IMG/VR virus record: IMGVR_UViG_3300005973_000002
Strand: one strand, 5' to 3'
Source of the DNA: a virus
Taxonomy: Duplodnaviria; Caudoviricetes
Length of the DNA stretch: 64,000 nucleotides
The notes beneath the pieces are model-generated. The model saw only the letters and a list, made by a program, of their open reading frames with translations. It did not search any database and had not been told where the DNA came from. Positions 7,505 to 64,000 of this stretch are shown here, piece after piece. A program made the position numbers and the translations under genes. Positions within the stretch are counted from its first letter, which is position 1, and every line of letters begins with the position of its first letter.

Positions 7505-8491
7505 TTAAGGAAGTAGAGGATTATCATACTTGAACATGAAGTAGGCATCATCATCGCCGTCTTCATCTTCTATCTCTTCTTTGTCGAATGATTGCTCAAT
7601 ATCAATACTATCCCATTCATCAACCGGAATCCAATTAGTTCCGTCCCAAACATCGATATAATCAGCGTCAATTCCATCAGGAATAATGTATGCACCTGCG
7701 ACTGCGTCTTTAGAACCCAACTCGTCGTCAAATAAATCGTCTTCCAGGAATGCAGCTGGGTCGATTTTTAAGACCACAGGCACCAATCCATCTTCAAGAG
7801 GATTGTCACTATTATGCTCTGCAAATTGTTCTGCTCTGTTGAACCAAAAACTAACACCATCATCTTCTGTCAGAAAGACACCTTTCTTAGAATGAGCATC
7901 ATAACCACCAGCACCGATAGACCTAGCCATCCCCGGCCTCAATCCAGCCTCTGAGATGCCGCCTAAGCGGTTGAAGTAAGTTACATGATACAGAGGGTCG
8001 TTAATTTCCGAACCGTCTATAACCTCTTTTACAATATTATTAAAGCGTCGCTTTTTGATGGGTTGATTTCTGAAATACTCTATAATATCTTTTTCTGATG
8101 GTAGATCACGCCTACCCAACGCCACGCCTAACCAACCAATCATAGGAACGTCTCTATTTGGGAGACCTAAACCTGAACCTCGTGCATCGTTACATGGATA
8201 ACAAGACCAGGCGAGGTTCCACCTATCAAATTTGGGGCCTCCAAGAGAGCGTAGAATGATGTGTTCGACACCAACTAAAGTTTTTTCTCCACAAAAGGCA
8301 CAGCTTTTACCAACTCTTTCTTTTTTAAGTCGGCCAACTCTCCAACCTGTAGGTCTGTTCTGTTTTGATTTCAGATTTTTTAACCACTCTATGTAATCAG
8401 CAGCGTGTTTAACATCGGCCCCATCCAAACTTTCTGCAAGTTGTTGGAACTCTTCATCAACAAGCAATTCAATCAATGTTTTGATGGACAT
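7505..8491 (-). CDS. Two-domain protein: HNH nuclease plus ADP-ribosyltransferase-like domain, acidic leader
   Basis: CAFC..EHII..GG..NL..SCYPCN is an HNH motif; LYHVT...GLRP...GVFLT is an ART-fold H-x-T/F-L-T pattern. Confidence 0.7.
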   Translation of the reverse strand: MSIKTLIELLVDEEFQQLAESLDGADVKHAADYIEWLKNLKSKQNRPTGWRVGRLKKERVGKSCAFCGEKTLVGVEHIILRSLGGPKFDRWNLAWSCYPCNDARGSGLGLPNRDVPMIGWLGVALGRRDLPSEKDIIEYFRNQPIKKRRFNNIVKEVIDGSEINDPLYHVTYFNRLGGISEAGLRPGMARSIGAGGYDAHSKKGVFLTEDDGVSFWFNRAEQFAEHNSDNPLEDGLVPVVLKIDPAAFLEDDLFDDELGSKDAVAGAYIIPDGIDADYIDVWDGTNWIPVDEWDSIDIEQSFDKEEIEDEDGDDDAYFMFKYDNPLLP

Positions 8492-8498
8492 AATTGAT

Positions 8499-8507
8499 TA
8501 TAAATAG
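8499..8507 (-). promoter_or_regulatory. Putative phage late promoter CTATTTATA (representative copy)
   Basis: The same or similar motif lies before the starts at 30373, 32389, 35944, 38873, 40360, 45806, 61858 and others. Confidence 0.6.
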
Positions 8508-8550
8508 ATCATTCATACTTTCATTGAAACCCACCAGCGGTTTTTCGTAC

Positions 8551-9501
8551 TCAAGAAAACACAAGTGTAAATAACTGTACGAATGTATCGACTCCCATAT
8601 CATCATTGTAAATCTTCCCAACAAAGAATACATGTTTTGACACACCTTCACTGGTTGTAAACAAACCAAAGTCAATTACATCAAGTTTCTGTAATTCATT
8701 TTGAGCACTTTCAAAGAATTGACCAACAATGTTGCTTTGGCGAGAAGTTTCAGTAAATAAGAATTCTTGGGCATAGCCCATATCTTCAAATTGCCGAATT
8801 TCACGTTCTACATCTTCAAATGTAAGAATTGGTTCTTGATTCAGGTTTATAAATTCCCCCAAAGGTTCGGCTTCTGTGGTGCCAAGCCTTGGCTTATTAA
8901 CTGGTGGAAGAAATTGGTAATTTGGAATGTGACTTAACCGTTTGTCCTGAAAAAAACCTTCAACATTATTAAGATTGGCAGTAGAAATAGAAGCTGTAGA
9001 AAATGGTCTAGTTTCTGTTATGGAAAATGTAGCTTCTTTTGGTCCAACTATAAATTGACGCTCCCTAAAATCGATTGGGTCTGGGCTTCTTAAAATGTAG
9101 AGTTTTTTAAAATTGTCAATTGAACTGTCGAGAAGTCGTTCAGAAAGACTGGCATACTTGGAACCAGTAACTACAACTGTTTCATTTTCGGATGAGGAAG
9201 ACAAAATTTGTCCGCCACGAATGATGTATCGATCCGATCCAGAGATTGGAAATCCGGTCAGCCTTCCAGAATCATCTGCTTCGAGCGTAATTGTATCCTG
9301 AGGAAGATTAGTTGCCTCAAGTTGAATTCTGTAGGTGTCATCAAGACCTCCACTAACAATCGTATCCTGATTATAGAACATGCCCGAGTCGGTAAAAGAA
9401 TAAAATTCTGCAATCAGACGACCTTGTGCAATTTGTTTACGGCCTTCCGTTGTTAGAAACGTGTCGAAGATTCTATTTTTTGAATTTAATATACCGGCGA
9501 T
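8551..9501 (-). CDS. Virion structural protein (tail/baseplate region); ORF extended upstream to an ATC codon
   Basis: Frame is open upstream of the ATG at 9381: (I/M)AGILNSKNRIFDTFLTTEGRKQIAQG. An AGGAGG Shine-Dalgarno lies 8 nt before the ATC at 9501. Confidence 0.65.
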   Translation of the reverse strand: MAGILNSKNRIFDTFLTTEGRKQIAQGRLIAEFYSFTDSGMFYNQDTIVSGGLDDTYRIQLEATNLPQDTITLEADDSGRLTGFPISGSDRYIIRGGQILSSSSENETVVVTGSKYASLSERLLDSSIDNFKKLYILRSPDPIDFRERQFIVGPKEATFSITETRPFSTASISTANLNNVEGFFQDKRLSHIPNYQFLPPVNKPRLGTTEAEPLGEFINLNQEPILTFEDVEREIRQFEDMGYAQEFLFTETSRQSNIVGQFFESAQNELQKLDVIDFGLFTTSEGVSKHVFFVGKIYNDDMGVDTFVQLFTLVFS

Positions 9502-9545
9502 GACCCTACCCTCCTTTGGGGAACTTATTAACTTTTATCTCAATT

Positions 9546-25792: not shown

Positions 25793-26302
25793 ATGTCAAC
25801 AAATAAAAAAACAGATGAAGATTTGCTAGACGATTTTGAGTCTATGCTGTCAGATAAAATGGCAGAAGAAGACAAACCATATCAATATACGGAACAATCT
25901 TTTGACCCACAAGTGCCAGAAACAAGTTTTAAGCCAACACCAACTAAAGAACTTGATAAAAAAATCAACAAACAACTAAAAGACTTTAGTTCATTGCTTG
26001 ATTCTTTATCTTCACTTGAAGATAAAAAGAAGGCACTATGGAAACAGATTTATGAAAATTCTGTTACGGATCGCAAAAACGCATATATTTTGTTTGGTGA
26101 TCTCTATAAAGATGTTCACAACAATCCAAATGAGCATGCCATTCATGGCCCAACCTTAGCCAAGTATCTTGAACGAATGGAAAAATCAAATCAACAGCTT
26201 ATTAAACTTGCTGAAATGATTGATGATGTAGTTGAAGAAGAAGAAGATTTGCTTACTGATGAAGATTCTATTTACGACAGGATTCAAAAGGGACAAAGGT
26301 GA
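25793..26302 (+). CDS. Hypothetical acidic helical protein
   Basis: 169-aa ORF preceded by an ATAATTA motif; coiled-coil-like. Confidence 0.7.
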   Translation: MSTNKKTDEDLLDDFESMLSDKMAEEDKPYQYTEQSFDPQVPETSFKPTPTKELDKKINKQLKDFSSLLDSLSSLEDKKKALWKQIYENSVTDRKNAYILFGDLYKDVHNNPNEHAIHGPTLAKYLERMEKSNQQLIKLAEMIDDVVEEEEDLLTDEDSIYDRIQKGQR

Positions 26303-28386
26303 TGGCGTTTTTTCTGAAAAAATTGATTAAAGAAGAAGTAAGAAAAACTTTGCGATTGCTCACTGAGGGTATCGTCCACATTGACAAACTCAAGCCAGAA
26401 GAGCTTTTAGAGTTTCTTAGAGGGTGGAATTTAGATAAGGCCAGGTTCCATGTGTCAGAAAAAATGGATGGCAATTACATGGCTTTGGGGGTGGACAATG
26501 GTCAGTTTTACTTGAGAAGCAAAAGTAAAACATTTGAGTCTGCCGATGATGTCCCAAATATATTCTTCATGAACGACTTTAGGAAATACTTCAATCTGCT
26601 TCAGTCCATTCCTTGGAATGAAATTTTTGTTAAGATGGCTACAAAGTGGAATTTTGATTTTGACGGAACGTTTGAAATCGAGGGTGAGGCCATTCCATCG
26701 TTCGACCACAACATTGTTATTTATGATGAGGCAAAAATTGGGGATGGTATCTTTCTTATTTTTAATACAAAATCTACTATGGGCAAAGAAAAAAGTGGAA
26801 GAGTTCACAATCCAGAAATGTGGCTTGACCTTGCGCAAGAGGTTAACAAATACAGCTCAGTTAAATTCTTTTCTGTACCACAGGTAAGTTTAGACGACCT
26901 GGAATTTGATAACGATCTTATCGTAAATTTAGAAGCTCTTATTCAAGAACACGGTAACTTTTTAAAAAAGCCAGCCAGAACACAAGCTGCCAAGGAACTC
27001 AAAGCCAAACTGTTGGCGACAATAGCAGAGCTTGGAAAACAAGCCAAGAGGCAAGCTCTACAAGTACCAGTATCAAGCAAATTTGGCCCGGAAGTAGAGG
27101 GCGTTGTTATTTCTGGACCAGGGGGGAAATTAGTAAAAATTGTTGACACAGAAAAGTTCACTGCCAGAAAAGAAAGAAACTGGCATTTCATTAATCAACT
27201 AATTTCGGCCGAGCGTGATTTCAAAAAAAGGATAAAAGAAAACCCACAAGATTTGGAACTACATCTGCTTGAATGGCAAGAAGAAGTAGAGGACATCCAA
27301 AAAGACTTTGATAAAAATGGGCACAAATACATAACGATCCGAAAGAAATTTGAAGATACGCAAAATGGAATTGACTTTGCATTGGGCATGATAAAAGCGA
27401 TGAAAGATCGCCTTGATGCTGGGCAAACTTCTGAGGAGGTTATTGCTGCCTTCAACAATCGTCAAGTTGTTCCCGAAAATGCGAAATCGCTTTCTGAATC
27501 AGTTTTTATTACCGAAGCTGAACTCAATGAAGGTGGAAATGTTTTTGATGAGATGAATTCTGTAGTGCCAAAATCACTTCTTGAACCAAGTATTGAAAGA
27601 GCGATGGTATTAGCCAATTTGGATGGAATTAAATTTGAAATAGTTGGCAACAAAACTAAACCATTCTTCAATGACATTGACGTTGCTATTGATGCAACGG
27701 ATTTGCTGAATTACCTTGGTCTTCCTGAAGGTACTCAAGAATTTTGGGATGAGCTGAATACTCATCTGGCAAGATCTAACGTTGAAAAATATTCAATCAT
27801 CAAGGGCCTAAAGCAGTTTCATATTTTGGTTCCACTTATTGACAGTTCCGGTGAACAGGTTAGAGCTTTCTTACCAGATGGTGAAAGCAGAAGTGACGAA
27901 CCTGCGTTAATTCAAATTGATGTGTTTGTTGGAAACTTGCAGTGGATGAAAGATATCAATTCTGGTGCGCCAGAATCAAGCAAATACAAGGCATCGTATA
28001 GGAATATGTTACTTGCGTCAATAGCTTCAGTAGTTCAATGGAGCATAGAAGGCGATTCAGACAATGAGTATTTTCGTTATGTGATGAATTTCAGGGACGG
28101 ACTAAAGCGACAGAAGATCAAAGTAATTTCACCAAGTGGCAGAAGAAAAAAACCTAAAAAGGAAAAGCTATCGGACCAAGTAGTAACTTCAAACCCTGAT
28201 GATCTTGCCAAAATTCTTTTCGGCAAAGGTGTCAAATGGTCTGACATGAATTCATTTGAAGAATTATACAATCTTCTTACAAGTAAAAAATTTCGCTTTG
28301 AAAAATTTTTACCTGAAATCATCAAGGAATTTAGAACCTCGCTAGAAAAACAAGGCATGGAAGTTCCTAAACAAGTTTCTGAATGA
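26299..28386 (+). CDS. Fusion: RNA/DNA-ligase-like adenylation domain plus Pol-beta-type nucleotidyltransferase
   Basis: Ligase motifs I (SEKMDG), III (EIEGE), IIIa (FLIF), IV (EGVVI) and V (LVKIV). Second half has GGNVF..G..K..NDIDVAID..QIDVFVG (DxD plus third Asp). Confidence 0.7.
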   Translation: MMAFFLKKLIKEEVRKTLRLLTEGIVHIDKLKPEELLEFLRGWNLDKARFHVSEKMDGNYMALGVDNGQFYLRSKSKTFESADDVPNIFFMNDFRKYFNLLQSIPWNEIFVKMATKWNFDFDGTFEIEGEAIPSFDHNIVIYDEAKIGDGIFLIFNTKSTMGKEKSGRVHNPEMWLDLAQEVNKYSSVKFFSVPQVSLDDLEFDNDLIVNLEALIQEHGNFLKKPARTQAAKELKAKLLATIAELGKQAKRQALQVPVSSKFGPEVEGVVISGPGGKLVKIVDTEKFTARKERNWHFINQLISAERDFKKRIKENPQDLELHLLEWQEEVEDIQKDFDKNGHKYITIRKKFEDTQNGIDFALGMIKAMKDRLDAGQTSEEVIAAFNNRQVVPENAKSLSESVFITEAELNEGGNVFDEMNSVVPKSLLEPSIERAMVLANLDGIKFEIVGNKTKPFFNDIDVAIDATDLLNYLGLPEGTQEFWDELNTHLARSNVEKYSIIKGLKQFHILVPLIDSSGEQVRAFLPDGESRSDEPALIQIDVFVGNLQWMKDINSGAPESSKYKASYRNMLLASIASVVQWSIEGDSDNEYFRYVMNFRDGLKRQKIKVISPSGRRKKPKKEKLSDQVVTSNPDDLAKILFGKGVKWSDMNSFEELYNLLTSKKFRFEKFLPEIIKEFRTSLEKQGMEVPKQVSE

Positions 28387-29199
28387 TTAACGACGATAAA
28401 ACTGGTTGAAAACATCCTGCGTTAAGCCGTAATCAACCAAAACAGGAACTTCTCTGCCATTTCTATTGACCGCACCCCAAGAACTTATACGCATAATATC
28501 ACCAGAAGGCATTCCAAAATCTGCCATCATGGTGACAACATCGCTGAACAATTCTGATTCTTCAATTTCTTCATAGTTGTCAGGAACAGGCATTTTCCAT
28601 CCACGTTGACCTGTTCGATCAATCATGTAATTGTTAAGAGTGGCCATCCAACCATCAAACTTGTGACCAGTGAGCCGCTCCCAATCAGACTTTTTTAATT
28701 TTTTAGCTCGTTCCATTTCAATGTAAAGATAGTTGTCAGCATCATAGTCCTTGACTTCTGCAATTACATTGTAGCCAATGTGCGACACATCTACTTCGAT
28801 TTCGTTTTGCGCCTGTCCCTTTTTGTTGTTTGCAATCTTGACCACCGTGTTTGGATCTACGGCGAAAACAACACGTGCCGAGCCCCCACCAAGTTTGCCA
28901 AGATGCTCACGGGCATAAGCTACTCTTTTACGAAAGCTTGGCAGCGACTTAAATTCTTCAGTGTCAAATCCTTGAGGATAGTCTGCCTCATCAAGCCAAC
29001 CTTCATACAAAGGCTGTTCATGAAGTTCTTCAAGAGCTTCAGCAACCAAATGGCCTATCATTTCCCGTAAATCGTTTTCTGAAATGCTTTTTTCGCCTTC
29101 CTGTTCTTCATTGTCAAACAATAACAATTTTTCTTTGCCGCCAACTTTTACAGTTTTTTTATTGGCTGACTTTTGTTCTTTGGTGTGCCCATCAATCAT
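28387..29199 (-). CDS. Protein kinase-like protein
   Basis: LGGGSARVVF Gly loop, VVKIA lysine, QNEIE helix-C Glu, GDI..SWG catalytic region and LVDYG (DFG equivalent). Confidence 0.8.
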   Translation of the reverse strand: MIDGHTKEQKSANKKTVKVGGKEKLLLFDNEEQEGEKSISENDLREMIGHLVAEALEELHEQPLYEGWLDEADYPQGFDTEEFKSLPSFRKRVAYAREHLGKLGGGSARVVFAVDPNTVVKIANNKKGQAQNEIEVDVSHIGYNVIAEVKDYDADNYLYIEMERAKKLKKSDWERLTGHKFDGWMATLNNYMIDRTGQRGWKMPVPDNYEEIEESELFSDVVTMMADFGMPSGDIMRISSWGAVNRNGREVPVLVDYGLTQDVFNQFYRR

Positions 29200-30896: not shown

Positions 30897-31598
30897 TTAG
30901 CGAGGACGGCCCCTACCAATGCCCATGCCTCGGGCACCAAGGCCACCAATATCCTTGCCCATCTGCACAAGACGTTGTCCTGGGCCCATCATAAACGATT
31001 TTTGCGCCTTTTCAATGTCAGCTGCCTCACGGCCTGCGGAATAAACTCCAGAGCCACGTGGTACCGCCTGAAAGAGCTTGTCAGCAGCATCATTCAATGA
31101 TTGCGAAAGGCTTTGGAGGGTGTAAGCGGCAGCCGCAAATGGTTTGCTTAGCTCTTCTTTTGTTGCCGAATCAACTTCGGCAACTTTCTGAAGCTCATAA
31201 AGATCATAAAGTTGATCAATGTAGCTATTGAGTGCTTGTTCCACTGCTCTTACATCGGTAAGTTTTGTTGCAGCAAGATTTTTTCTTGCTTTTTCAACAC
31301 CTTTTGCCATCTGCATTACGGCCCTGGTGTCTCTTTGTTGCGCTTTAGCCTGCGCTTTTTCGCCTTTTTCCTTACCCATTCTTTCCAAGTCTTGAACGCC
31401 TAGTTTTTTAAACGGACCGAAAAATTCAAGCAGTTGTTTCTTGCTGTTGATTTTCTTGTGCTCTTTAAGAAATGGTGTATTGTATAAGCAAACTAAAGCA
31501 TAGTGCGCAGCCTGTTTCTGTTCTAGTGCAATGGAGGTCGATTCTCTTTTGACAGACTCGCTGACAAGCTTACGAAGTTGTGATTTTTTGATCTTCAT
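30897..31598 (-). CDS. Helical protein with MKIKKSQLRKLVSE leader (putative head internal protein)
   Basis: Leader motif; LLE site before a K/Q/A-rich coiled coil. Confidence 0.7.
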   Translation of the reverse strand: MKIKKSQLRKLVSESVKRESTSIALEQKQAAHYALVCLYNTPFLKEHKKINSKKQLLEFFGPFKKLGVQDLERMGKEKGEKAQAKAQQRDTRAVMQMAKGVEKARKNLAATKLTDVRAVEQALNSYIDQLYDLYELQKVAEVDSATKEELSKPFAAAAYTLQSLSQSLNDAADKLFQAVPRGSGVYSAGREAADIEKAQKSFMMGPGQRLVQMGKDIGGLGARGMGIGRGRPR

Positions 31599-31660: not shown

Positions 31661-32389
31661 TTATCGCCCTCTTTGGCGTTCATATTCCTTAAAAGTTTCA
31701 ACAAAAACTCTATTGAGTTCAATAAGCTTTTGCGAAATTTGATTCAAGATCTTACCAAGAGCCTTTAGTTCATTTAGGAAGACAGAAACTGAAGTAACGT
31801 TTCTAGCATTTTTAAGCATTTGCTCTCCTTCGATTGCAATGCTTTTTACTTCACTGGCAGTAATCAAAATATTTCGAGCGAGATTTCTTCTTCCTACTGG
31901 CGTATCAGGATTCAAGTTCATTTCTGCCATTGGTATCTTTTTGAGTCCTGTCAATATAAGAACTTCCGTATAGCTTTTTTGCACTTTTGGCAATTCTTTT
32001 TGTTGAAGACCTTCAAGATTTTCATAAATTTGGATGAGCTTTGTTTTGAAGTTTTGTCGTGTATCGGCAGTCATAGCCTGATTGGCCAATCTCATTATAA
32101 TATTGAGTCGAGCAACTATATCACCGTAATCTTGGTATACCCTGTCCAGAATATTTTCTCTGCCTTCTTGCGTGCCAATGTCTGTTGTTTCAGATGTTGA
32201 TTGTTGCTTGAACTTTTGTCGAAGACGTCTTTTCCTTTCAGCAGGAGTTTCAGGTTTGGCCGGCACATCTCCCACAAAAGCTGGGTCGGTAGGTTGAGTT
32301 TGTGGAATAGACCGAGGTTCTGCTTCAGTAAGCACTTCAAGCAGAACACCTTTGATCATCTTTCTAAGTTCGACTTTGTTCAATTTCAT
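31661..32389 (-). CDS. Helical protein with MKLNKVELRKMIKGVLLEVLTE leader (putative head internal protein)
   Basis: Leader motif plus LLE/LTE sites. Confidence 0.7.
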   Translation of the reverse strand: MKLNKVELRKMIKGVLLEVLTEAEPRSIPQTQPTDPAFVGDVPAKPETPAERKRRLRQKFKQQSTSETTDIGTQEGRENILDRVYQDYGDIVARLNIIMRLANQAMTADTRQNFKTKLIQIYENLEGLQQKELPKVQKSYTEVLILTGLKKIPMAEMNLNPDTPVGRRNLARNILITASEVKSIAIEGEQMLKNARNVTSVSVFLNELKALGKILNQISQKLIELNRVFVETFKEYERQRGR

Positions 32390-36696: not shown

Positions 36697-37394
36697 TTAG
36701 TCTATATTGCGCAGCCATGAATCGTCGTCTTCTTCAAAATCTTCCGACAAAGAATCAATCATAGCTTCGATCTCTTCAACAGACTTGTCTTCCAGACTAC
36801 GCCGAGGACGAATTCCGTAAACATCCTTGTATACATCCCTATAAGTCTCAATTGCCAAATATTTTGCTAAATCTTCACCGGTTCTTACGTCATATTGTTC
36901 CCAATGAGAAGGATCGACAACTAGTTTAAATGGTCCTTTTGACTGCTTGTTAAGAAGCTCGGCATATTCCGATGCAGTCTCCGGATACTTGCTTTCCCCA
37001 AGGCACCTTCTGCATGTATGGCTTTTAAAAATTTCTTACGATGTTTGGCGTCTTGGAAGGGCTGTAAAGCCGAAACTTTTTTATATGGCCCATCTACCGA
37101 ATCATTAGTTCCAAAGTAAGCAGCGACGTCCTGGGCCGCTTCAGGTGATGTTCTTTCAGCTATCGAAGATGTTGATTCTCCTAGTACGGAAGAGAGATAT
37201 CGTTTAATGTTATGAGTAAGATCATCGAAGACTTCTGGGGCATCTACTGGATCAAGCTCAAGGTCTTTGATTAGGCCAGCCACATGTTTATTAACAACAC
37301 TTGCAACATGGTCATGTTTGGCCATGTGATAAGACGATTCTTTAACAATACCAGCAAGCCGCTGCCATCTCTCTTTTATTATTTTATTTGACAT
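36697..37394 (-). pseudogene. RWxxLAG-leader protein continuing by -1 frameshift into a start-less C-terminal domain (..YRDVYKDVYGIRPR..)
   Basis: MSNKIIKERWQRLAG start at 37394. The -1 frame is open from about 37035 to a TAA at 36697, reads LGESKYPE...HWEQYDVRTGEDLAKYL, and has no early start codon of its own. Confidence 0.65.
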
Positions 37395-37842
37395 CTTTTT
37401 CGAGGCCGTGCTCATCATCCTGATCATCGCCAGCTTCATCTTGAAGATAGTGTGCTACAACGTCCATCATTTCTGCTGCGAGAGTAAGCTTGCTTTGCAC
37501 CCAAGCTTCAAGTTGCGCATCTTCTGGAAGCTTTAAAAGCAATTCTTTGGAATATTTGCGGATTTTTTCAAGTTGACCTCTGGCCATAGAACCCTCGTGG
37601 TCTTCATCAGGCTCAACTTCAATTTTATCAGGATCCAATTCTGGAGCCATCTCTTCTAAAATTCCCTCAAAATTGTATTCCGGTTGTTTAGGACGATTGC
37701 CGAATGGATTACCCATTGGTGCTGGACTTGCCATTCCAAGATTCATAAAACCTTCATTAAGCCGTTCTCTTTCTTCTGTTCCTACAGAAGACTCCTTGAG
37801 TCCAGCGAGCTGTTGCCATCTGTTTTTGTTTATTTTATTCAT
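37384..37842 (-). CDS. RWxxLAG-leader protein with HEGSMARGQL..WVQSKLT..HYL domain (putative head internal protein)
   Basis: NRWQQLAGLKES leader; the C-terminal motif resembles ones I recall from T4-like phage virion proteins. Confidence 0.7.
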   Translation of the reverse strand: MNKINKNRWQQLAGLKESSVGTEERERLNEGFMNLGMASPAPMGNPFGNRPKQPEYNFEGILEEMAPELDPDKIEVEPDEDHEGSMARGQLEKIRKYSKELLLKLPEDAQLEAWVQSKLTLAAEMMDVVAHYLQDEAGDDQDDEHGLEKDVK

Positions 37843-37843
37843 A

Positions 37844-38056
37844 TCAACCTTCCGAATGCCAAGAACCTAATTCTTCTGCAAGCCATTCATCTTCATCAGC
37901 AGGATCCCAACCAGGCTCTTCTTCATCAGAGCGTTTTTTGTCTCTCTGCCACTCAGAAGATGAATCATCTGAATCCTGTATATCAATTTCCAAATCATCA
38001 GCTTCCTTGAGTAAGCCAGCCAATTTCATCCATCGCTCTTTTAAGATTTTGGCCAC
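37844..38056 (-). CDS. Very acidic 70-aa protein with KILKERWMKLAG leader
   Basis: Leader followed by LLKE, then a D/E-rich peptide. Confidence 0.75.
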   Translation of the reverse strand: MAKILKERWMKLAGLLKEADDLEIDIQDSDDSSSEWQRDKKRSDEEEPGWDPADEDEWLAEELGSWHSEG

Positions 38057-38567: not shown

Positions 38568-38873
38568 TTACTTGTCAGCTTTTGCTTTTTCTGCAAGGCT
38601 GTTAAGCCATGCAGTCAAGTTCTCATCAACAATAAAATTCCCGACTTCCTTACCTAACTCTTGTAACATTGCTACATCTGCTTCTTCAGACGGTTCAAGC
38701 CAATAGTGTAATGCGTACCAAGCTTGTACTGCTTCATCCATAGATTGAATAAAAGTATCGAGAAGCTCTTTTCCTTCTCCTCCTAAGTCTTGTTGTAGAA
38801 TATCGTTTCCGCCAACCTGTTCATTGATGGCTTCTCGGATCATTTCTCTAAGTTGTGACTTGGTTATTTTCAT
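38568..38873 (-). CDS. Acidic protein with MKITKSQLREMIREAINE leader
   Basis: ATG at 38873 with GGAG SD and an upstream CTATTTAAG motif; the longer ORF start at 39035 is unlikely. Confidence 0.75.
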   Translation of the reverse strand: MKITKSQLREMIREAINEQVGGNDILQQDLGGEGKELLDTFIQSMDEAVQAWYALHYWLEPSEEADVAMLQELGKEVGNFIVDENLTAWLNSLAEKAKADK

Positions 38874-40868: not shown

Positions 40869-41714
40869 TCACAATTTTTTGCTATCCTTAACTCTTTGCT
40901 GAAGAAGATAAACATACGTCTCGTGAGTGTTGGCTGATGATGCAAGTTGATCATTCAAACCAAGCGTCATGGCATCCATTTCTTCCAAAGTTGCAAACAT
41001 TTCCTCAACAAATTTTATATAAGCTTTTTCAAGACGAAGTCCGGCTTTTGCGATATTGTGAGCACTGTCGCTTACCTTACAACCTGCTTCTTCCATTATT
41101 TCAACAGCGTTGCTTGTAATCATCAGAGGGCAAGCAAGCAATTCATCGTTGGTAACACCGACAGCTTTTTCTATGGCGCCATCAATCTCATCTTGGACTT
41201 CAGTATATATCCTTCCATAAAGGTCTTCATGGTCACCAGCGAATCCAGTGCCTTTGGTAAGATGATGAGCTGCGTGAAACCAAAGATGAATTGCTCTAAG
41301 ATAAGAAACGTATCCAGCGAGCCAGTTCTTGACATCATCGATTTCATCTCTGACATCATCTCTTTGTTGCTCCAAACTTGAGATAGGAGCAAGTCCAGAA
41401 ATTACTGGTTCAACTGGCGCATTCATATCTGCAACCATGTCAACTTGCTCATCTAATTCTTTATACGGGTTGTAGTCAAGATCAAAAGCATATGAATCAC
41501 TCTTTGGATCGTAGTCCGAACGCATCCAGGCTGGTGCCCGACGACCACCAATATATTCTTCATCATCAACAACAACAGTTCGAGGAAGTCTTGGTTCTGC
41601 TTTTGATTTTAGATCGGCCAATTCTTCTTCTTCGTCTTCACGGGAAGGCCAGCGATCTTCATATCCTTCAGTAAGAAGTCCTGCTAATTTTTTCCATCTT
41701 AGTTTATTGCTCAT
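40869..41714 (-). CDS. RWxxLAG-leader protein with C-terminal Dps/ferritin-like domain
   Basis: RWKKLAGLLTEG leader; HLWFHAAHHLTKGTGFAGDHEDLYGRIY..QDEIDGAIEK matches the Dps ferroxidase pattern. Confidence 0.75.
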   Translation of the reverse strand: MSNKLRWKKLAGLLTEGYEDRWPSREDEEEELADLKSKAEPRLPRTVVVDDEEYIGGRRAPAWMRSDYDPKSDSYAFDLDYNPYKELDEQVDMVADMNAPVEPVISGLAPISSLEQQRDDVRDEIDDVKNWLAGYVSYLRAIHLWFHAAHHLTKGTGFAGDHEDLYGRIYTEVQDEIDGAIEKAVGVTNDELLACPLMITSNAVEIMEEAGCKVSDSAHNIAKAGLRLEKAYIKFVEEMFATLEEMDAMTLGLNDQLASSANTHETYVYLLQQRVKDSKKL

Positions 41715-44725: not shown

Positions 44726-45097
44726 TTAGCCAAACACTGCTGCGTTTCTAGCTTCTTTTTTTGAATCAAACGGGCCATGTACATTAGGTCCGCCCCATTC
44801 TGACTCAGTTGAATAATACCATCCTGATGGAACTACCAGGATTTCATCACCAATCTTTAACTTAAGATCTTTAGGTAAGCGACCAACGCTTATCTGAAGT
44901 TCGTCGTATCCTTCTGTATCGGTTTCCGTTTCAAGGTCATGAAGCGAGTACACGATTTTGTCTGCTGCCTTAGATGGCAAGGATGGTAATTTGCCATGTT
45001 CGTCAAGCCAGCTTTGATACGTTTCCCCGACCATTAGACCCTCTTCATATTCTTTTATAAGCCCAGCGAGTTTCTTAAGACGTCTTTCTGTTAACAT
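44726..45097 (-). CDS. Protein with RRLKKLAGLIKE leader
   Basis: Variant of the RWxxLAG leader; SD GGAG. Confidence 0.7.
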   Translation of the reverse strand: MLTERRLKKLAGLIKEYEEGLMVGETYQSWLDEHGKLPSLPSKAADKIVYSLHDLETETDTEGYDELQISVGRLPKDLKLKIGDEILVVPSGWYYSTESEWGGPNVHGPFDSKKEARNAAVFG

Positions 45098-48933: not shown

Positions 48934-51195
48934 TTAGTCAACCTTTTTGATCCCGGCAAGTACCTGCCAGCGATTTGCGGATTGGCCATTGGAATCATGA
49001 CCTGCCTGTGGCTGAGCGGCCTCAGTGAGGTTTGCGCTCCCTGGTTTGGTCACCTTAGAGGAAGAACCACCCAATTTGCGGGAAGCTGATGCATGCTCGT
49101 CGAGCCTGCGCTTAATTTTTGTGTAAATAGCCTTTGTCTCGGCTACGGATGCACCCTTGTCAAGGTGCTCGACAATTTGCTGTAGAGCCTTCTTGGTGAG
49201 TGCTTTTTCAGAGAGTGCTCTCTGAAGGAATTTGCTGTAGTAAACTGTCTTTGAAGTGAACAAGTTGGTCTCTGCGAGCTGTCTGTTCAATCCTTCAACC
49301 TGCTTGCCTCTTGCTTCAAGAAGCTTGACAGCCTTTGCGAGCTTCTTTTCAAGAAGTCTGTTCTTACGTGCGAGGTGTTTGAACTTACGGGATTCCATGT
49401 GCATTGCCTCTTCCATCTCATCTGCAAGAACCATGTCTTCTTCTGCGGATTCCATATCGTCTACGTCGCCACCAAGGTCAACATCCATTTCGTCATCCTC
49501 GTCATCAACGATTTCAACTTCCTCATCCTCAGCACCTACATTGAGATCAACGTCTACGTCAAGATCATCAACACCAAGTGCTGCCAACTCTTCTTCAACC
49601 TCTGGCGGAAGGTCTACCGAAAGAACAAGATCTGCGGCATCATCAACACCAAGGTCATCATCTTCCATCATATCCATTTCGTACATGCTTTCTTTCATTT
49701 TAAGATTGCTCTTATGTTTCCTGTCCTCAAGGTTCTCATGGGAACCGTCATCACCACCTTCTGGTTCGGCATCTTCCCATGACTCTGCTTCTTTGCCGTC
49801 GGAAGCTTCTCTAAGAGCATCAAGCTTACGTTTGATATTTTCCTTGCGGATTGCCCTTACTGCCTCTGCAAGTTCGGCGTCATCAACTTCAAACTCTGCG
49901 ACTGGTTCTTCGTTAGTGTCACCAAAGCCAGCTGCACCTTCTGCAACGTCATCATTTGCATCAGTGTTTGCGTCTGCGCTGTTCTCATTCATTGAACGAG
50001 TAACGGTTTGATCCTGATCTTCCTCATCAACAACAGGCTCGGCCTCATCCCAAGGACGATCGTGCACATCGCCACTAATTGCATCTGCATCAACAGAGCC
50101 AGCGGTTCCACCCTTCATCTCTTCGGCAAGCTTGCCCTCCTGAGCGACTTCAACGTCTTCGGGACCACCAAGATGTGGATCAACACCAGATACATCAGCT
50201 GCGTGACGTGAATATTCGTCATCAACTTTCAAACCGGACTCGCCAGTGTGAGCAGAATCCTTAGCGAGGTTTTCATCTTCCTCGAAAAGTTTTGCTGCAA
50301 ATTCTTTGAGACTTGTCATATCGGTACCTTTACCTTGTTCTTTCTTCAAGTAACTATTATCCAAACCTGCCTCTTTCAGCTTTAAGAATAAAAATTCTAA
50401 CTTGTTTTCGTTGAGACGAGCTTGTTTGTTAGTAATTAGGCCCCGATCTCGCATTCCATCCAAAGCTTCGACTAAATCAAAAAGTCTCTTTTTAAGAGAA
50501 CTTCTCGTGATGTCAGAAACTCGTCCTGAGAAATAAGCTCGATCAATCCGTTCAGAAATATTACTAAGGACCCTATTGTATTCTTTATAAGAAACCGCCT
50601 CTGTTGGAAGCGGTGCAACTTCCTCTTCTTCTTCAGTTGGCTCACCAGCAGCTGGTTGAACTGGTGCTGCTGGACCAGCAGTTTCTGGAGCTGGCACAGC
50701 AGCTGGCTCTGTCGGCTGAGTTGGCTGTGCACCTGCTGGAGCACCTGCTGCTTGGAGTGGTGCCTCTCCAGGCGTAATTGTAACCTGATCCGAGTCAGCG
50801 TCTACAAAAAGATCTTCGAAATCAACAACGATCTTTCCATCTTCATCTGGCATAGAAGCACCAACCAAATCCTCACCGCCAGGTGCAGGAACTGGGGCGT
50901 CCACTGTTTGATCGCCAAGCTCTCCTGCAACCGTTTGAGTCGGATCAGTTGTGCCGGCTGGAGCAGTGGTTGGTTGTGTACCACCCATACCCTGAGGGTC
51001 TGGTGGTAGTTGAGGCGAAACCTCCTCTTCATCTTCCTGTTCAAAGAAGAAGTCCGAGGAACCCATAGCTTCCTTCGCAATTACTTTTTTAATGTAAGGG
51101 GTGAGTTCTTCAATTAAGGCTTTCTTCGCATCGGCCTCTGCGATTTCCTTAAGCTTTTCAGCGTCCCTTACTGCTTCTGTAAAAAGATCTGTCAT
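48934..51195 (-). CDS. Prohead core scaffolding protein (gp22-like), very acidic
   Basis: Lies immediately upstream of the capsid gene; D/E-rich, C-terminal coiled coil, ends NRWQVLAGIKKVD. Confidence 0.8.
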   Translation of the reverse strand: MTDLFTEAVRDAEKLKEIAEADAKKALIEELTPYIKKVIAKEAMGSSDFFFEQEDEEEVSPQLPPDPQGMGGTQPTTAPAGTTDPTQTVAGELGDQTVDAPVPAPGGEDLVGASMPDEDGKIVVDFEDLFVDADSDQVTITPGEAPLQAAGAPAGAQPTQPTEPAAVPAPETAGPAAPVQPAAGEPTEEEEEVAPLPTEAVSYKEYNRVLSNISERIDRAYFSGRVSDITRSSLKKRLFDLVEALDGMRDRGLITNKQARLNENKLEFLFLKLKEAGLDNSYLKKEQGKGTDMTSLKEFAAKLFEEDENLAKDSAHTGESGLKVDDEYSRHAADVSGVDPHLGGPEDVEVAQEGKLAEEMKGGTAGSVDADAISGDVHDRPWDEAEPVVDEEDQDQTVTRSMNENSADANTDANDDVAEGAAGFGDTNEEPVAEFEVDDAELAEAVRAIRKENIKRKLDALREASDGKEAESWEDAEPEGGDDGSHENLEDRKHKSNLKMKESMYEMDMMEDDDLGVDDAADLVLSVDLPPEVEEELAALGVDDLDVDVDLNVGAEDEEVEIVDDEDDEMDVDLGGDVDDMESAEEDMVLADEMEEAMHMESRKFKHLARKNRLLEKKLAKAVKLLEARGKQVEGLNRQLAETNLFTSKTVYYSKFLQRALSEKALTKKALQQIVEHLDKGASVAETKAIYTKIKRRLDEHASASRKLGGSSSKVTKPGSANLTEAAQPQAGHDSNGQSANRWQVLAGIKKVD

Positions 51196-51798: not shown

Positions 51799-52290
51799 TT
51801 ACTTATTCTCATACTTTCCGAATGCTAAAGCTGCCCAATGATTTTTTGGACGGTCGCCACTAAGAGCATTTAGTTGGGCCTGATCAATCTGTTCTACCTC
51901 TGGACTTGCTTGTTCGCCGAGATAAACACCACCTCCGCCGCCCATTTCTGTTCCAAGTTGCGATTGTAGGGTCGTCATTGCCGTGTCTGCAAAAATACTT
52001 TCCATCATTGCAGCTTGTTTTGGGTCACCTTGAGCGGTCTGCATAGCTGCAATACGAGAAAGTTCCCTAAGTCTTTCATTTGGTGTCATATGACCAACAG
52101 AAGAGAATGGTGGTTGCGCCGTGGTAGAATTTTTAGTAACCTGTCCTACAAAATCATTTGGAGCAACCCTAGCTGTTGCAGCAACTGGTTGAACATTTTC
52201 TTTGATTACATTGTCAAATGCACCTTCTGTTATTAATTCTCTGATGCACTCTTTTAAAATTTTCTTGAATTGTGTTCTATTAAGCTTCAT
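51799..52290 (-). CDS. Putative head assembly protein with MKLNRTQFKKILKECIRE leader and HWAALAF tail
   Basis: Carries both motif types; located in the head operon. Confidence 0.65.
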   Translation of the reverse strand: MKLNRTQFKKILKECIRELITEGAFDNVIKENVQPVAATARVAPNDFVGQVTKNSTTAQPPFSSVGHMTPNERLRELSRIAAMQTAQGDPKQAAMMESIFADTAMTTLQSQLGTEMGGGGGVYLGEQASPEVEQIDQAQLNALSGDRPKNHWAALAFGKYENK

Positions 52291-52362: not shown

Positions 52363-52857
52363 TTAAAGTCGATAACCATATTTGTTACCAATGCCCTGCA
52401 ATACTTTCTGCCAAGTCTTTTCATCAATGAATTCAAGGACGTCTTCTAGCAATTCATAAGTTGAAAGGTTTGCTTCGGTTCTAAACCGATCAAGTATCAT
52501 TTGACGCTTTCGAACAGTGGAAGCCTCTTGTAATTGATTTCTAACGGCCCGCTTTACCATTTCTTTAAGCTGCGTTTTTGAAATACGTACAGGTTTTTTT
52601 GATTCATTTTTCGGAACGCAGTTAGGTACTTCTTTCCCGTTTTGGGTTTTCATACCGACCATTTCGTAACCATCCCAGCATGGATTATCTTCACCACTTT
52701 CTTGCAAGCCGGATTCCTTAACAGCACCCCAAGCTTTTTTTGCTGCGGTTTCTTTGCTGTCGCCCCCGTCACGTGCACTGTGATAAACTGCCGTCCACTG
52801 ACTGTAGTCGTCTTCTGGTAGATCTTGTACGCTTTTTGGATATTTACTCTTTGGCAT
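52363..52857 (-). CDS. ChaB-like domain plus PCWxGY..NCVP module plus internal leader-like motif
   Basis: LPE....W..VY.SA......AAKKAWGAVK (ChaB-like); NPCWDGYEMVGMK..GKEVPNCVP; RISKTQLKEMVKRAV. Confidence 0.7.
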   Translation of the reverse strand: MPKSKYPKSVQDLPEDDYSQWTAVYHSARDGGDSKETAAKKAWGAVKESGLQESGEDNPCWDGYEMVGMKTQNGKEVPNCVPKNESKKPVRISKTQLKEMVKRAVRNQLQEASTVRKRQMILDRFRTEANLSTYELLEDVLEFIDEKTWQKVLQGIGNKYGYRL

Positions 52858-52866: not shown

Positions 52867-53424
52867 TCAAATCCATTCAATTCCAAGGACTTCCATAATA
52901 CCAGAAGCCAAAGACCACGCAGTTTCTTCAATGCTCACATCCCCGTATCTGTCGTTCCATTCGTCAAGAACATTTTCAACCTCTTCGTATTGGTCATCAG
53001 AAAGTTCGTCTGGCTCTGGAGCGTTGATAAGGGCTTCTATGGTAGCTCTAAGACTGCCCGCAGATGCTGTACTTCCCGCTCCTGGATTATCAGATAGAGT
53101 CATGGCATATTCAAACGCAAGAGAGTCGGCACCCTGAAGTTTCATGTTGAAAGCTTTGCCATCCATTAAATCTTCAAAAACATCTTCCGATGGAAGATCA
53201 CCCCAAGTCATTGTTTTTTCATTGAGTTCACGATCTTCTTTTTTCATTGCCTGTGTAATTTTTTTTCGACGATATGCAAGATACGCATCAGAACTATCAA
53301 TATCACCATCGTTGTCGATGTCACGAATTTGACCGACCCCTACCTTTTTCCCCGTTTCAGTTTTCCCAACTGGGTCAAGTGCTTCCTTGACAGCTTCTTC
53401 AATTATTTGTTTTATAGTAGTCAT
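52867..53424 (-). CDS. Acidic protein with DIDNDGDIDSSD Ca-binding-like loop
   Basis: MTTIKQIIEEAVKEALDPVG leader; DxDxDG motif. Confidence 0.65.
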   Translation of the reverse strand: MTTIKQIIEEAVKEALDPVGKTETGKKVGVGQIRDIDNDGDIDSSDAYLAYRRKKITQAMKKEDRELNEKTMTWGDLPSEDVFEDLMDGKAFNMKLQGADSLAFEYAMTLSDNPGAGSTASAGSLRATIEALINAPEPDELSDDQYEEVENVLDEWNDRYGDVSIEETAWSLASGIMEVLGIEWI

Positions 53425-53425
53425 T

Positions 53426-54280
53426 TTAGCAAAGCCCTTCCTTTTCACTTTGAAGAATTAACTTTTCGAGCTTGGTAAGATATTCTTCTTCTTTAGCATC
53501 AACCATTTCTTCGTTGTCAACATCTCGATCAATATCTATGCGACTCTCTAATTCCATACCACGAGCCGATTGCTTCATTGCTTGTCGTTTTTTAACAACC
53601 TTGGCTTGTTTTGATCTTTCTCTTTCCTTTTCAAGATGCTTTTCAAGTTGAGATGGACTCATCCTCCTGTCAGCCCCTGTAGTAGATCGACTTTTTTCAC
53701 CAAGATCCATTTCTGTTAATTTTTTTCTAATGATCTTGCGGACCATTTCTTTTAGTTGCGCTTTCGTAACCTTCATTGCTGCATCCTCTTGCAATTTTTC
53801 CTGAAATTTCTTAATGAACCTTGCTACACTTTGTTTTGCCCCTAATCCAGCAACAAATTCTTTGGTAAGAATTTCTTTGCCGTTTTTCTTTATTGAAACT
53901 ACAAACTTGACATTATCAATTCCCATAACGCTCACAAATTCAGCTTTAACATCAGCTTTAAAATCGTTAGAAATTTCTACAGTGGCAAGTGCAGAGCCAC
54001 CATATGCATTATTTCCGAAAACTTTTTTCAGATGCTTGGAAAGCGACAGCATCTTATGATGCCTATCCCTTTTACGCTTGGAATCTCGACGTATTTGAGC
54101 AAGTTCATCAGAAAAGGTTTGGCCGTGCCTTCCCCTGTAGGCCGAAGCCTGTCTACGAGAAGCCTCACGGCCAGCTTCTATTCCCTTTTTGATTGTGGGA
54201 TAAAATACAGGAGATACCTCAGTCAATTCTTCTTTGACTAAGTCAGAAATGAATCCTTGTATTCTATCCCTATCATTCAC
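53426..54280 (-). CDS. Basic/acidic protein with N-terminal and internal leader-like motifs
   Basis: ISDLVKEELTE near the N-terminus; internal MKVTKAQLKEMVRKIIRKKLTE. Confidence 0.7.
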   Translation of the reverse strand: MNDRDRIQGFISDLVKEELTEVSPVFYPTIKKGIEAGREASRRQASAYRGRHGQTFSDELAQIRRDSKRKRDRHHKMLSLSKHLKKVFGNNAYGGSALATVEISNDFKADVKAEFVSVMGIDNVKFVVSIKKNGKEILTKEFVAGLGAKQSVARFIKKFQEKLQEDAAMKVTKAQLKEMVRKIIRKKLTEMDLGEKSRSTTGADRRMSPSQLEKHLEKERERSKQAKVVKKRQAMKQSARGMELESRIDIDRDVDNEEMVDAKEEEYLTKLEKLILQSEKEGLC

Positions 54281-61858: not shown

Positions 61859-61927
61859 ATGGGTAAATAGTAAGTAAACCCACGTCGAACGCATTTTAGA
61901 AATAATTGTTTAGACAATAGAGAATTG

Positions 61928-62637
61928 TCAGTAGTGTAGATCATGAACTAATGCCGTATAACCATAGTCAAGAAGCACTACACGTCCATCAGCGGTTTTG
62001 CCCCAATGATCTAAAAATGTTAAATCTTCTGGAAGCAAATCGTATTTTTTTGCCATTTTTAGAAAATTTCTCACCCACTTGTTTGTCTTAAGATATGAAA
62101 GAGCCTTGAGTAATACTTCTGCATAATGATCAGAATTTCTCCTTGATGCCCTAAACTCAAGTTCATCAGCAGCTTTTTTAAAATCCCCCCTAGCTTCATA
62201 CAAAAAAGTTTGTACGGCATACTGAAATGCTTCCCAGTCGATTCCACCAGTTAGTTTTTCAAAATCTTCATCGCTATTCAATGGTCTAACAAGTTGAGAT
62301 ACCAACCAGAAACCATCAGGATCATAATCAAAAATTTGCGACACGAATGGAGCTACACTGAGTCGGTTGCAACTTCAAGTTCTGCATGATTTTGGGCCAG
62401 TCCCCTACGAGGATTTAAAGGATCAGCTAATTTTAAGACATAGCGGTTGCTCAATAAGTAAACCCATCTAGAAGACCCGCTGCCTAGTTTTTCGGTGCCT
62501 GTTTTTTCTAGGTAATATGCCATTCCCTTAGGAGTTTCAAGTTCTTTAAACTCCGACCACTTGAAATTACTCCTAATTTCTAAAAGAGTTTGCGACACCA
62601 TGAAATGTATTTGTTCTTTAAGATTTGCAACTAACAT
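61928..62637 (-). pseudogene. Protein kinase-like paralog split by a 1-nt deletion near 62356-62360
   Basis: KLGSGSSRWVY..VLKLA..QNHAELEVATDS joins in the -1 frame to VAPFVSQIFDY..DHWGKTADGRVVLLDYG, aligning with the paralog STDPDVKPIV. Confidence 0.8.
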
Positions 62638-62661
62638 AACAATATATATGATTTTGTTTGT

Positions 62662-63459
62662 TCAGATCCACGTAACATCATAATGTTTTCTAGCTACATC
62701 TCTCGAATAACCATAATCCAACAAAACTACACGGCCATCGGCAGTTTTGCCCCAGTGGTCTAACACGATCATATCGGCAGCCATTGCACCCTTATCAGAA
62801 ATTAATTCAATAGCAGCTTGTACCATTGGGTGTTCGGGTAATTCAGTTTGATATTCAATAACTTTTTCAATAGCCTCAAGTTGGCTTTTGTAGTATTCAA
62901 TATTTGTTTTATCGGCCGTATCTTCAGAGTCAAGTCGATTGATCTCTTCGATATACCTCTGTCGCAATTTGCGATGTTTCTCAATGGTATTTTCAAGTTC
63001 GCCCTCAAAAACAAGTTTAAGAACCTGGCGAAAATCAGTGAACGAAAACCCAGTTAAATCTTTAAATTCATTTATATTTTTTATTGGTCGAACCAACTCC
63101 GAAACAATCCACGAGTAATCATCGGCCGCATCATAGACTTCGGCCACAATTGGTTTTACATCTGGATCGGTAGACAAATCTACTTCATATTTGTTTTGCG
63201 CCTTCCCTCTCTCAAAACTACGAGGAGAACGTGGAAGAGGTTGGGCTAGTTGGGCTAGTTTGAGCACAAACCTATTGCTTAACAAAAATACAAGACGTGA
63301 AGTTCCCTCCCCTAATACTTGAGTACCAGTGTTTATAAGGTACAAGGCCCTGTCAAAGTGATCATCTATCTTTTTAAATTCAGACCACTTGAAATTACTC
63401 CTAATTTCATGAAGTGTTTGAAAAACCATGAAGCGTATTTGTTCTTTCAGTCTCATCAT
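62662..63459 (-). CDS. Protein kinase-like paralog
   Basis: LGEGTSRLVF, VLKLA, QNKYE and DHWGKTADGRVVLLDYG motifs. Confidence 0.8.
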   Translation of the reverse strand: MMRLKEQIRFMVFQTLHEIRSNFKWSEFKKIDDHFDRALYLINTGTQVLGEGTSRLVFLLSNRFVLKLAQLAQPLPRSPRSFERGKAQNKYEVDLSTDPDVKPIVAEVYDAADDYSWIVSELVRPIKNINEFKDLTGFSFTDFRQVLKLVFEGELENTIEKHRKLRQRYIEEINRLDSEDTADKTNIEYYKSQLEAIEKVIEYQTELPEHPMVQAAIELISDKGAMAADMIVLDHWGKTADGRVVLLDYGYSRDVARKHYDVTWI

Positions 63460-64000
63460 GCAGCTCGGTAAAGGTCAACCAAGTCCTCTGTAAAGCCGTA
63501 GTCTAATAGAACTACACGACCATCAGCGGTTTTGCCCCAATGATCCACTTCAAGAATATCACCACGCATAACACCAGCTTGATTCATCAAAGCAAGAGCA
63601 CCTTGTACCACTGGTGAATTTAACATTTTTTGAAGGTTTGTTTTTCTTTGCTGAAGGTTTTGAACGTTCTTTGTAAACTTGTCAATACCCGCTTCATTAC
63701 CCTGCGATTGAGCATTTTTGAGACGACGAGACCACATTTGAATGCCCTGTTCGATCTCGCTAAATTCACTCTTGATATCTTCATGATTTTTCAGTATAGA
63801 AACAAACTGTTCCCAGGGAACCCCTGTGAGCTTCTGAAATTCTTCTGTGCTTGCAAGTGGTCGTGCAATTTCTGAAACGAGCCAATGGCCATCTTCGCCA
63901 GCGTCATGAATAGCGGTTACATAATTCTTGCTTGCCGTATTAGCAAAGACCTGAAGCTCGCCTTTGTTCTGCCCCATTCCCTTTTCTGCCGCTTGAGGAA
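63456..64000 (-). CDS. Protein kinase-like paralog, 5' end outside window
   Basis: Frame is open to the window edge (PQAAEKGMGQNKGE..); DHWGKTADGRVVLLDYG. Confidence 0.8.
   Translation of the reverse strand, partial: PQAAEKGMGQNKGELQVFANTASKNYVTAIHDAGEDGHWLVSEIARPLASTEEFQKLTGVPWEQFVSILKNHEDIKSEFSEIEQGIQMWSRRLKNAQSQGNEAGIDKFTKNVQNLQQRKTNLQKMLNSPVVQGALALMNQAGVMRGDILEVDHWGKTADGRVVLLDYGFTEDLVDLYRAA

Follow-up and report, generated by a model that had tools for sequence, protein, structure and literature searches.

A putative T4-style capsid-targeting system with two portable peptide tags in a 461-kb far-T4-like phage

To our knowledge, the capsid-targeting sequence of phage T4 is the only well-studied natural system that places chosen proteins inside a phage head. 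It reads M-K-T-Y-Q-E-F-I-A-E and is used in phage engineering. In P22 gp8 and in the herpesvirus scaffold tail, the C-terminal end of the scaffold is the part that binds the shell, and fusing the P22 scaffold end to a foreign protein encloses that protein. The internal proteins of T4 are diverse; their common feature is a capsid-targeting sequence that gp21 removes (PMC3012670, PMC5694885). To remove these targeting peptides, gp21 cuts after (L/I)-x-E (PMC5694885). In encapsulins, the cargo (in the classic case a ferritin-like protein) is led into an HK97-fold shell by a short peptide at one of its ends (PMC8086168). Here we analyse a stretch of 64,000 nucleotides of viral DNA (IMG/VR record IMGVR_UViG_3300005973_000002, hereafter the window), in which two short peptides, tags A and B, recur on proteins that are otherwise unrelated. 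Our preferred reading, in which we place moderate confidence, is a T4-style capsid-targeting system with two portable tags, one of them scaffold-derived, that probably directs proteins into the assembling prohead.

The window corresponds to the virion-gene region of an uncultivated far-T4-like phage. It is part of a 461,030-bp contig (ENA ERZ27249357 k141_87304), and according to exact-protein matches the record coordinate equals the window coordinate plus 282,322. The part of the genome that was read amounts to ~150 kb and includes the window, ~50 kb past its end and 20 kb before its start. By megablast, no known phage is near the window at the DNA level. Capsid protein identities are 42-48% with Flavobacterium phage immuto, Microcystis phage Mel-JY01 and an uncultured 484-kb phage, and 38% with Rhodothermus phage RM378. 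IMG/VR contains hundreds of relatives. We took 80 of them, with capsid identities of 54-93%, and read six contigs in full. We call the window together with the relatives G006, G007 and G008 the tag subclade.

Tag A has the consensus R-W-x-x-L-A-G-(L/I/V) and stands at the N-terminus of six window genes. Tag B, with the consensus M-K-(I/L)-x-K-x-x-L-(R/K)-x-(I/L/M)-(I/V), is N-terminal in six window genes, internal in two and probably also present on an RNA ligase gene (Table 1). We built a hidden Markov model (HMM) of each tag from the window copies and scanned all stop-to-stop frames. The tag A HMM yields seven matches between 23.6 and 31.1 bits, and its next-best match scores 4.7 bits. For tag B there are seven matches between 27.7 and 33.9 bits, followed by a next-best match of 9.0 bits. 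The B profile was also iterated over ~9,100 open reading frames (ORFs) from the window and its relatives, with reversed sequences as decoys. Nine window genes, two of them with an internal tag, score above the decoy maximum of 7.5 bits. The iterated A profile drifted to an antisense ORF within the capsid gene, and these matches were removed by hand.

With the tags masked, the 54 tagged ORFs of the window and its close relatives fall into 30 BLASTP clusters. Hence, the tags sit on unrelated bodies, as a preliminary description of this DNA had proposed for its leader peptides. The amino acids of the tags are conserved and their codons differ. Tag B begins at the initiator methionine in 112 of its 152 unique matches. 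The strict tags A and B are genuine and position-specific. When the strict cases are left out, accessory genes show no excess of B-like scores at their N-termini, either against internal segments or against structural genes (p = 0.40, 0.66). Within the window and the flanks that were read, the tags are confined to the head/accessory block and its vicinity; the flanks add one further B-tagged gene and two further A motifs. The profile scan finds no tags in the glycan island or in the tail-fibre genes.

The preliminary description had counted about 20 genes that share leaders of three types. Our tally for the window is 14 robustly tagged genes, one probable case (the RNA ligase gene) and two borderline candidates (the kinase-like gene at 28387, with 6.6 bits, and the gene at 43014, with 5.5 bits); the remainder drops out. 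Types A and B are recovered with HMMs and decoys. The third type, C, turned out to be whole-length paralogy of tandem kinase-like genes, one of which is split (BLASTP). It is not a leader shared by unrelated bodies.

Tag A matches the C-terminus of a protein that is probably the scaffold. This scaffold-like protein has no family match; its composition and its N-terminus resemble the proteins encoded upstream of the capsid genes of immuto and Mel-JY01. The tag A motif closes the protein encoded upstream of the capsid gene, 1-7 residues before the stop codon, in 69 of 76 relatives; near variants take its place in the other seven. The corresponding proteins of cultured phages end in R-W-Q-K-L-A-G-I-I-K (immuto), R-M-K-K-L-A-G-I-V-K (Mel-JY01) and R-I-K-R-L-A-G-L (RM378). 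The motif is not found in gp22 of T4 or P-HM2. Since relatives and cultured phages share this C-terminal motif, tag A is a conserved C-terminal scaffold peptide. We infer that this peptide is the part of the scaffold that grips the capsid shell or core. Its N-terminal use is almost limited to the tag subclade, with one case in G010.

Tag B matches the N-terminus of a conserved protein of the head operon (51799..52290). In its fuller form the tag reads M-K-L/I-T-K-x-Q-L-K-x-I/M-I/V-K-E...L-x-E-G. Orthologues of this protein have 140-210 amino acids and the same N-terminus, and in relatives their genes are flanked by those of the protease and the scaffold. By analogy, the product corresponds to a prohead-core protein in T4 terms. 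In the relatives G001, G009 and G010, a gp21-type protease gene is located directly upstream of the core-protein gene. In the window, G007 and G008, the protease gene is not at that usual spot (the 51799-54280 region), and a row of B-tagged genes is found there instead.

Putative cleavage sites accompany both tags. In all six A tags of the window, (L/I/V)-x-E follows without a gap. Of the 20 N-terminal A tags in the subclade, 15 have a Glu at most three residues after L-A-G-(I/L/V); the C-terminal copies just end. The B tags hold nested I-x-E13, V-x-E17 and L-x-E21 sites, and 72% of the 152 B matches have an (I/V/L)-x-E site in model positions 13-26, compared to 12.8% of random windows. The leaders followed by L/I/M-x-E sites in the preliminary description are thus borne out, in this form. 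It had also reported leaders or E-sites repeated between the domains of several proteins. We see an internal tag B in 52363 and in 53426, a second site, L-D-E, in 40869, and L-N-E in 26299, where it directly precedes G-G-N-V-F, the start of the second domain. In the relative L007 that second domain is a gene of its own, which starts just after L-S-E. By analogy with T4, the patterns in leaders and at domain junctions fit the rule of gp21 cutting after (L/I)-x-E. The capsid protein itself has an N-terminal propeptide with L-K-E60. L-x-E60 lies ahead of the conserved core and is invariant in 23 relatives; how exactly this site aligns with T4 E65 is ambiguous.

The capsid propeptide (residues 1-40) also contains a loosely B-like stretch, M-K-T-F-T-L-E-Q-L-A-E-G, and a loosely A-like one, K-K-W-G-A-T-G-L-L-E-G. 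T4 gp23 (L086) reads T-K-A-E-L-L-N-K-W-K-P-L-L-E-G. None of these stretches of the capsid propeptide and T4 gp23 scores significantly with the tag profiles.

The tags are exchangeable among homologous bodies. Bodies that carry tag B N-terminally in one phage carry it internally, after an added domain, in another (the ChaB gene, the gene for the 284-aa protein and the 30897 homologue). The G007 and G008 orthologues of the 52363 body have ~80 amino acids and an N-terminal tag. In homologues of 53426 the tag is N-terminal, internal or present twice, and in the G006 homologue of 30897 it is internal, at residue 171. Among 120 database homologues of the Dps-like body, 25 carry tag A, four carry tag B, 69 are bare (~160 amino acids) and 22 have another long N-terminal extension. 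One Dps-like homologue is a GNAT-A-Dps fusion. Both tags also occur together. In the relatives L035 and L039, the gene next to the capsid gene on its downstream side encodes a protein that starts with tag B and has tag A as its extreme C-terminus. In L048 a homologous ParB-like body (34% identity, E 9e-14) combines an N-terminal B with an internal A followed by I-L-T-E. Exchangeable address tags tied to head assembly, an idea of the preliminary description, are hence supported by the match to scaffold and core termini, by Dps bodies with A, B or no tag, and by single proteins beside the capsid gene that carry both.

Table 1. Features of the window discussed in the text (aa, amino acids; the last column gives the score with the iterated tag B profile)
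Feature	Coordinates	Strand	Evidence	Iterated B profile (bits)
Probable B-tagged RNA ligase + nucleotidyltransferase-like protein, 695 aa, B-like N-terminal helix ending L-L-T-E-G	26299..28386	+	12.9 bits	12.9
Kinase-like protein, borderline B-like segment at residues 44-62	28387..29199	-	6.6 bits: over all background tiles, under decoy maximum	
B-tagged protein, 80 aa	29196..29438	-	23.6-32.7 bits	23.6
B-tagged protein, 233 aa, basic, Gly/Arg-rich tail	30897..31598	-	15.2-27.7 bits	15.2
B-tagged protein, 242 aa, basic, leader ends V-L-T-E	31661..32389	-	16.4-28.2 bits	16.4
A-tagged protein, 271 aa, acidic, leader ends L-A-G-V-L-Q-E	34846..35661	-	27.3 bits	
A-tagged protein, 157 aa, basic, leader ends L-A-G-I-V-K-E	36921..37394	-	30.4 bits	
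A-tagged protein, 152 aa, acidic, leader ends L-A-G-L-K-E	37384..37842	-	27.5 bits	
A-tagged protein, 70 aa, very acidic, GTG start, leader ends L-A-G-L-L-K-E	37844..38056	-	31.1 bits	
B-tagged protein, ~101 aa, acidic, ATG start	38568..38873	-	29.0-36.0 bits; absent from the list of the preliminary description	30.4
A-tagged Dps-like protein, 281 aa, leader ends L-A-G-L-L-T-E	40869..41714	-	26.5 bits	
A-tagged protein, 123 aa, leader ends L-A-G-L-I-K-E	44726..45097	-	23.6 bits	
Major capsid protein, gp23-like, 640 aa	46956..48878	-	phrog_138 major head protein E 2.8e-72; PF07068 Gp23; 29% identity to T4 gp23	
Scaffold-like protein, 753 aa, acidic, low-complexity, coiled-coil region	48934..51195	-	Directly upstream of capsid gene; gp22 position of T4	
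Tag A motif N-R-W-Q-V-L-A-G-I-K-K-V-D, then stop	48937..48975	-	Scaffold C-terminus, 24.2 bits with A HMM	
Conserved head-core protein, 163 aa, archetypal tag B ending L-I-T-E-G	51799..52290	-	28.6-44.4 bits	28.6
ChaB-like domain, internal tag B (residues 93-115, ends L-Q-E), small body	52363..52857	-	Tag 25.1-33.9 bits	25.1
B-tagged protein, degenerate form, 185 aa, acidic, head module	52867..53424	-	13.9 bits vs decoy maximum 7.5	13.9
Head-module protein, 284 aa, internal tag B (residues 170-192, ends L-T-E)	53426..54280	-	22.8-28.5 bits	22.8
Tail-sheath paralogues, two adjacent	54414-57443, 57500-60559	-	1009 and 1019 aa	
Tandem kinase-like paralogues, one split into 62353-62637 + 61928-62344	61928..63977	-	Whole-length BLASTP homology	

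From these observations a mechanism can be proposed. In this lineage, at least six other proteins would have acquired the C-terminal peptide of the scaffold as their N-terminus. Likewise, the N-terminal helix of the core protein would have been copied to at least seven further proteins, either N-terminally or between domains. The tag would bind the core or the shell, and the tagged protein would be enclosed in the prohead. The head protease would then remove the tag at (L/I/V)-x-E. The freed body would remain in the head together with the DNA, as T4 internal proteins do. Binding, packaging and cleavage are what the proposed mechanism predicts; injection into the host would be its weakest step.

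Such a system would work like the T4 capsid-targeting sequence without sequence homology to it. As in T4, where IPI-III and Alt are processed by gp21, a short N-terminal leader ending in (L/I)-x-E is found on unrelated proteins. The capsid is of the gp23 type, the head genes are in T4-type order and the payload varies among relatives. The targeting sequence resembles the scaffold terminus in T4 as well, where gp22 starts M-L-K-E-Q-L-I-A-E. However, the tags bear no resemblance to the T4 sequence beyond the terminal x-E. There are two tag families here instead of one, without sequence similarity to it, of 16-24 instead of ~10 amino acids, and more genes are tagged. Furthermore, one tag stems from the scaffold C-terminus and is also used at C-terminal and internal positions.

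Other capsids are more distant. The phages phiKZ, 201phi2-1 and SPN3US are also huge, contain many head-internal proteins with expanded paralogue families, and use a gp21-related protease that cuts at x-x-E (PMC5694885). In contrast to the tags described here, the propeptides of their inner-head and ejection proteins are mostly longer than 100 amino acids, share no short tag and carry the motif (A/S/G)-x-E, and no scaffold homologue is known in these phages; the phage of the window belongs to the gp23 (far-T4) lineage, not to theirs. The P22 scaffold fusions differ because here the fusion is natural, the peptide has ~10 residues instead of a helix-turn-helix, its position is mostly N-terminal, and a protease site accompanies it; its attachment to the shell is putative. 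Encapsulins resemble our case in that a Dps/ferritin-like protein carries tag A. Unlike the phage head, encapsulins as described hold no DNA and lack scaffold and protease. They use peptides at the C-terminus that show no sequence relation to the tags, and we claim no homology.

Several observations weigh against a capsid-targeting system. The adjacent Glu is absent from five of the 20 N-terminal A tags. Unlike in T4, no gp21-type protease gene was located in the window, ~50 kb past its end or 20 kb before its start (~150 kb of 461 kb), or in the contigs of the three closest relatives, G006-G008. The search combined tblastn with the relatives' proteases, a family HMM (120 homologues plus T4 and three other phages) and a regular expression for the catalytic motif, and none of the 120 best protease homologues comes from a contig of this length. 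In favour of the system, a Peptidase_S77 gene is present in five of five large relatives, and also in G009 and G010. No virion proteome was found either for this phage or for its relatives. Most of the tagged bodies resemble core or internal proteins rather than enzymes, and the conflict enzymes named in the preliminary description have no tag in the profile tests. The tagged proteins might be assembly parts only: extra scaffold or core paralogues that are degraded and expelled at maturation, so that there is no payload. The bodies mostly lack domains; they are small and helical or disordered, with a strong acidic or basic character. Four B-type genes lie within the head module, and several nested cleavage motifs in the B tags are what one would expect if the proteins were cut to small pieces. 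Such an account fits the Dps and ParB-like bodies less well than the small charged proteins. Some bodies are folded and belong to known families (the Dps fold, the ParB-like body in relatives, the probable RNA ligase-transferase), and the Dps body is untagged in many other phages, which argues for a function of its own. We therefore consider pure assembly parts unlikely.

Could the tags instead serve another shared partner, such as a chaperonin, or simply be a generic helix for oligomerisation or membrane contact? The N-terminus of T4 gp23 does target fusion proteins to GroEL (PMC3012670). The loosely B-like and A-like stretches of the capsid propeptide would agree with this, as would the many N-terminal helices of the genome that look loosely alike. 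But tag A is the extreme scaffold C-terminus across a wide clade, tag B belongs to the core protein of the head operon, and genes next to that of the capsid encode proteins with both tags. In addition, the cleavage motif follows the N-terminal tags and not the C-terminal ones. A different partner thus seems quite improbable to us. Finally, chance, composition or paralogy could produce similar leaders in an AT-rich genome that is rich in Lys/Glu/Ile/Leu helices. This is what happened with type C, which is paralogy, and the loose leaders on the ART, HNH, DUF7178 and kinase genes stay below decoys or background. For tags A and B, chance and paralogy are already refuted: the strict tags score 13-31 bits against the decoy maximum of 7.5, they begin exactly at Met, they use differing codons, and their bodies form 30 unrelated clusters.

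A capsid-targeting system with two portable tags therefore remains our preferred reading. A stronger version of it is possible, and we put it forward tentatively. Here, the scaffold C-terminal and core N-terminal peptides would form a modular code. Used N-terminally, internally or C-terminally, alone or together, they would bring folded cargo inside a T4-type capsid, where it would then be released by the head protease. The candidates for such cargo are the Dps-like cage, the ParB-like nuclease and the RNA ligase-transferase. If this modular code were true, an encapsulin-like principle would be at work in a virus.

If the preferred reading holds, three things would be new: a scaffold can give rise to a targeting tag when its terminal peptide is copied, two tags can occur together or replace each other on a given cargo, and the set of tagged genes expands in huge phages (in one subclade). 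The tags would also make it possible to predict from sequence which proteins of hundreds of uncultivated far-T4 phages are internal to the head. Moreover, they are short and natural, and one could map what such a peptide binds on the capsid or core.

One of the A-tagged proteins is Dps-like (40869..41714). The Dps body that the preliminary description had proposed is confirmed as a Dps fold by a structure model, by its matches in the PDB and by the JGI names of its homologues, which are annotated as DNA-binding ferritin-like protein. Residues 121-281 form the four-helix bundle. The predicted local distance difference test score (pLDDT) of the model exceeds 90 for most of residues 131-280, and the tag helix and the linker are of low confidence. 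All of the top 50 PDB matches are Dps proteins, with template modelling (TM) scores by target of 0.63-0.84. H150, D161, H162, D178 and E182 are invariant in 36 Dps-like homologues and are candidate ferroxidase-centre residues. After the leader, the window protein has an acidic insert of ~70 amino acids and then a second site, L-D-E, directly before the conserved Q-V-D-M-V. Its relatives read L-A-G-I-L-K-E straight into Q-V-D-M-V.

A third conserved N-terminal extension, roughly E-C-P-A-D-x-A-x-E-A-x-F-V-A-K-A, is found on the Dps-like proteins P0169, P0187, P0208 and ~20 others, which come from other metagenomic phages; it is neither A nor B. Some Dps homologues have an N-terminal domain similar to that of a DUF3008 protein, followed by tag B and the Dps body. 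This DUF3008 protein is encoded in the same genome ~45 kb past the window end (L133 1934-3004) and has an internal tag A followed by L-L-T-E.

Most of the robustly tagged bodies are small and highly charged, whether acidic or basic, and neither an enzyme domain nor a family match can be recognised in them. By analogy they appear similar to T4 internal and core proteins. For example, the protein encoded at 34846..35661, a paralogue of 37384-37842 by body clustering, has no Pfam or PHROG match. The basic protein encoded at 36921..37394 has orthologues in G006 and G008 that retain the tag.

The picture is different for the enzymes. The preliminary description had proposed a tag-addressed arsenal of ART, kinase, HNH and glycosylase enzymes, and this part of it is not supported: those genes carry no significant tag. 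The genes at 7505 (HNH/ART), 25163 and 41721 (both ART-like), 43897 (DUF7178), 29435 and 61928-63977 have no tag above decoys. The loose amphipathic leaders on 7505, 25163, 41721, 43897 and 29435 were rejected, since they do not exceed decoys or background. As to the bodies themselves, the proposed HNH, RNA ligase and ChaB domains do find matches, all of them weak: the HNH match of 7505, the RNA_ligase match of 26299..28386 (E 5.5e-5, below the cut-off) and the ChaB match of 52363..52857 (E 7.9e-4, below the Pfam cut-off). The ART-like call at 41721 and the kinase-like call at 62662, which rests on kinase-like features and fold leads, stand as leads. The RNA ligase gene is probably B-tagged, although its orthologues score under the B threshold. 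The G001 homologue of the kinase-like gene at 28387 begins with a B-like helix that scores just 4.5 bits. The kinase-like genes at 61928-63977 are three tandem paralogues (also L126 9258-10004); in the split one, 62353-62637 is the N-terminal half and 61928-62344 the C-terminal half.

The window contains a glycan-synthesis island at its start and no tRNA genes, and its G+C content is 38-48%. Both tail-sheath paralogues have ~1,000 amino acids, roughly 1.5 times the size of T4 gp18. The gp15-like match is weak, and a gp19-like tube protein and a baseplate-J protein both score slightly below the Pfam cut-offs. An actin-like gene at 32854-33858 (+), with a full-length Volactin match (PF25216, E 1.6e-64), is located within the accessory block. 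Directly downstream of the capsid gene lies a GIY-YIG/HNH homing-endonuclease gene, 45878-46771 (-), like segD in T4. Homing-endonuclease-type genes also lie at 14190-14651 and 13594-14196. In the relatives L004 and L006 the capsid matches are 700-850 nucleotides longer, which suggests an insert in the capsid gene.

The heptamer C-T-A-T-T-T-A is a candidate late promoter. It has 12 copies in the window, 11 of them on the minus strand (for example, at 8507, 10899, 26268, 32416, 35956, 38898, 40394 and 40446). Most copies lie 6-90 nucleotides before starts, including those of the tube gene and a baseplate gene, as well as those of the RNA ligase gene and of two B-tagged genes. The heptamer is observed six times in upstream regions, where 0.41 occurrences are expected.

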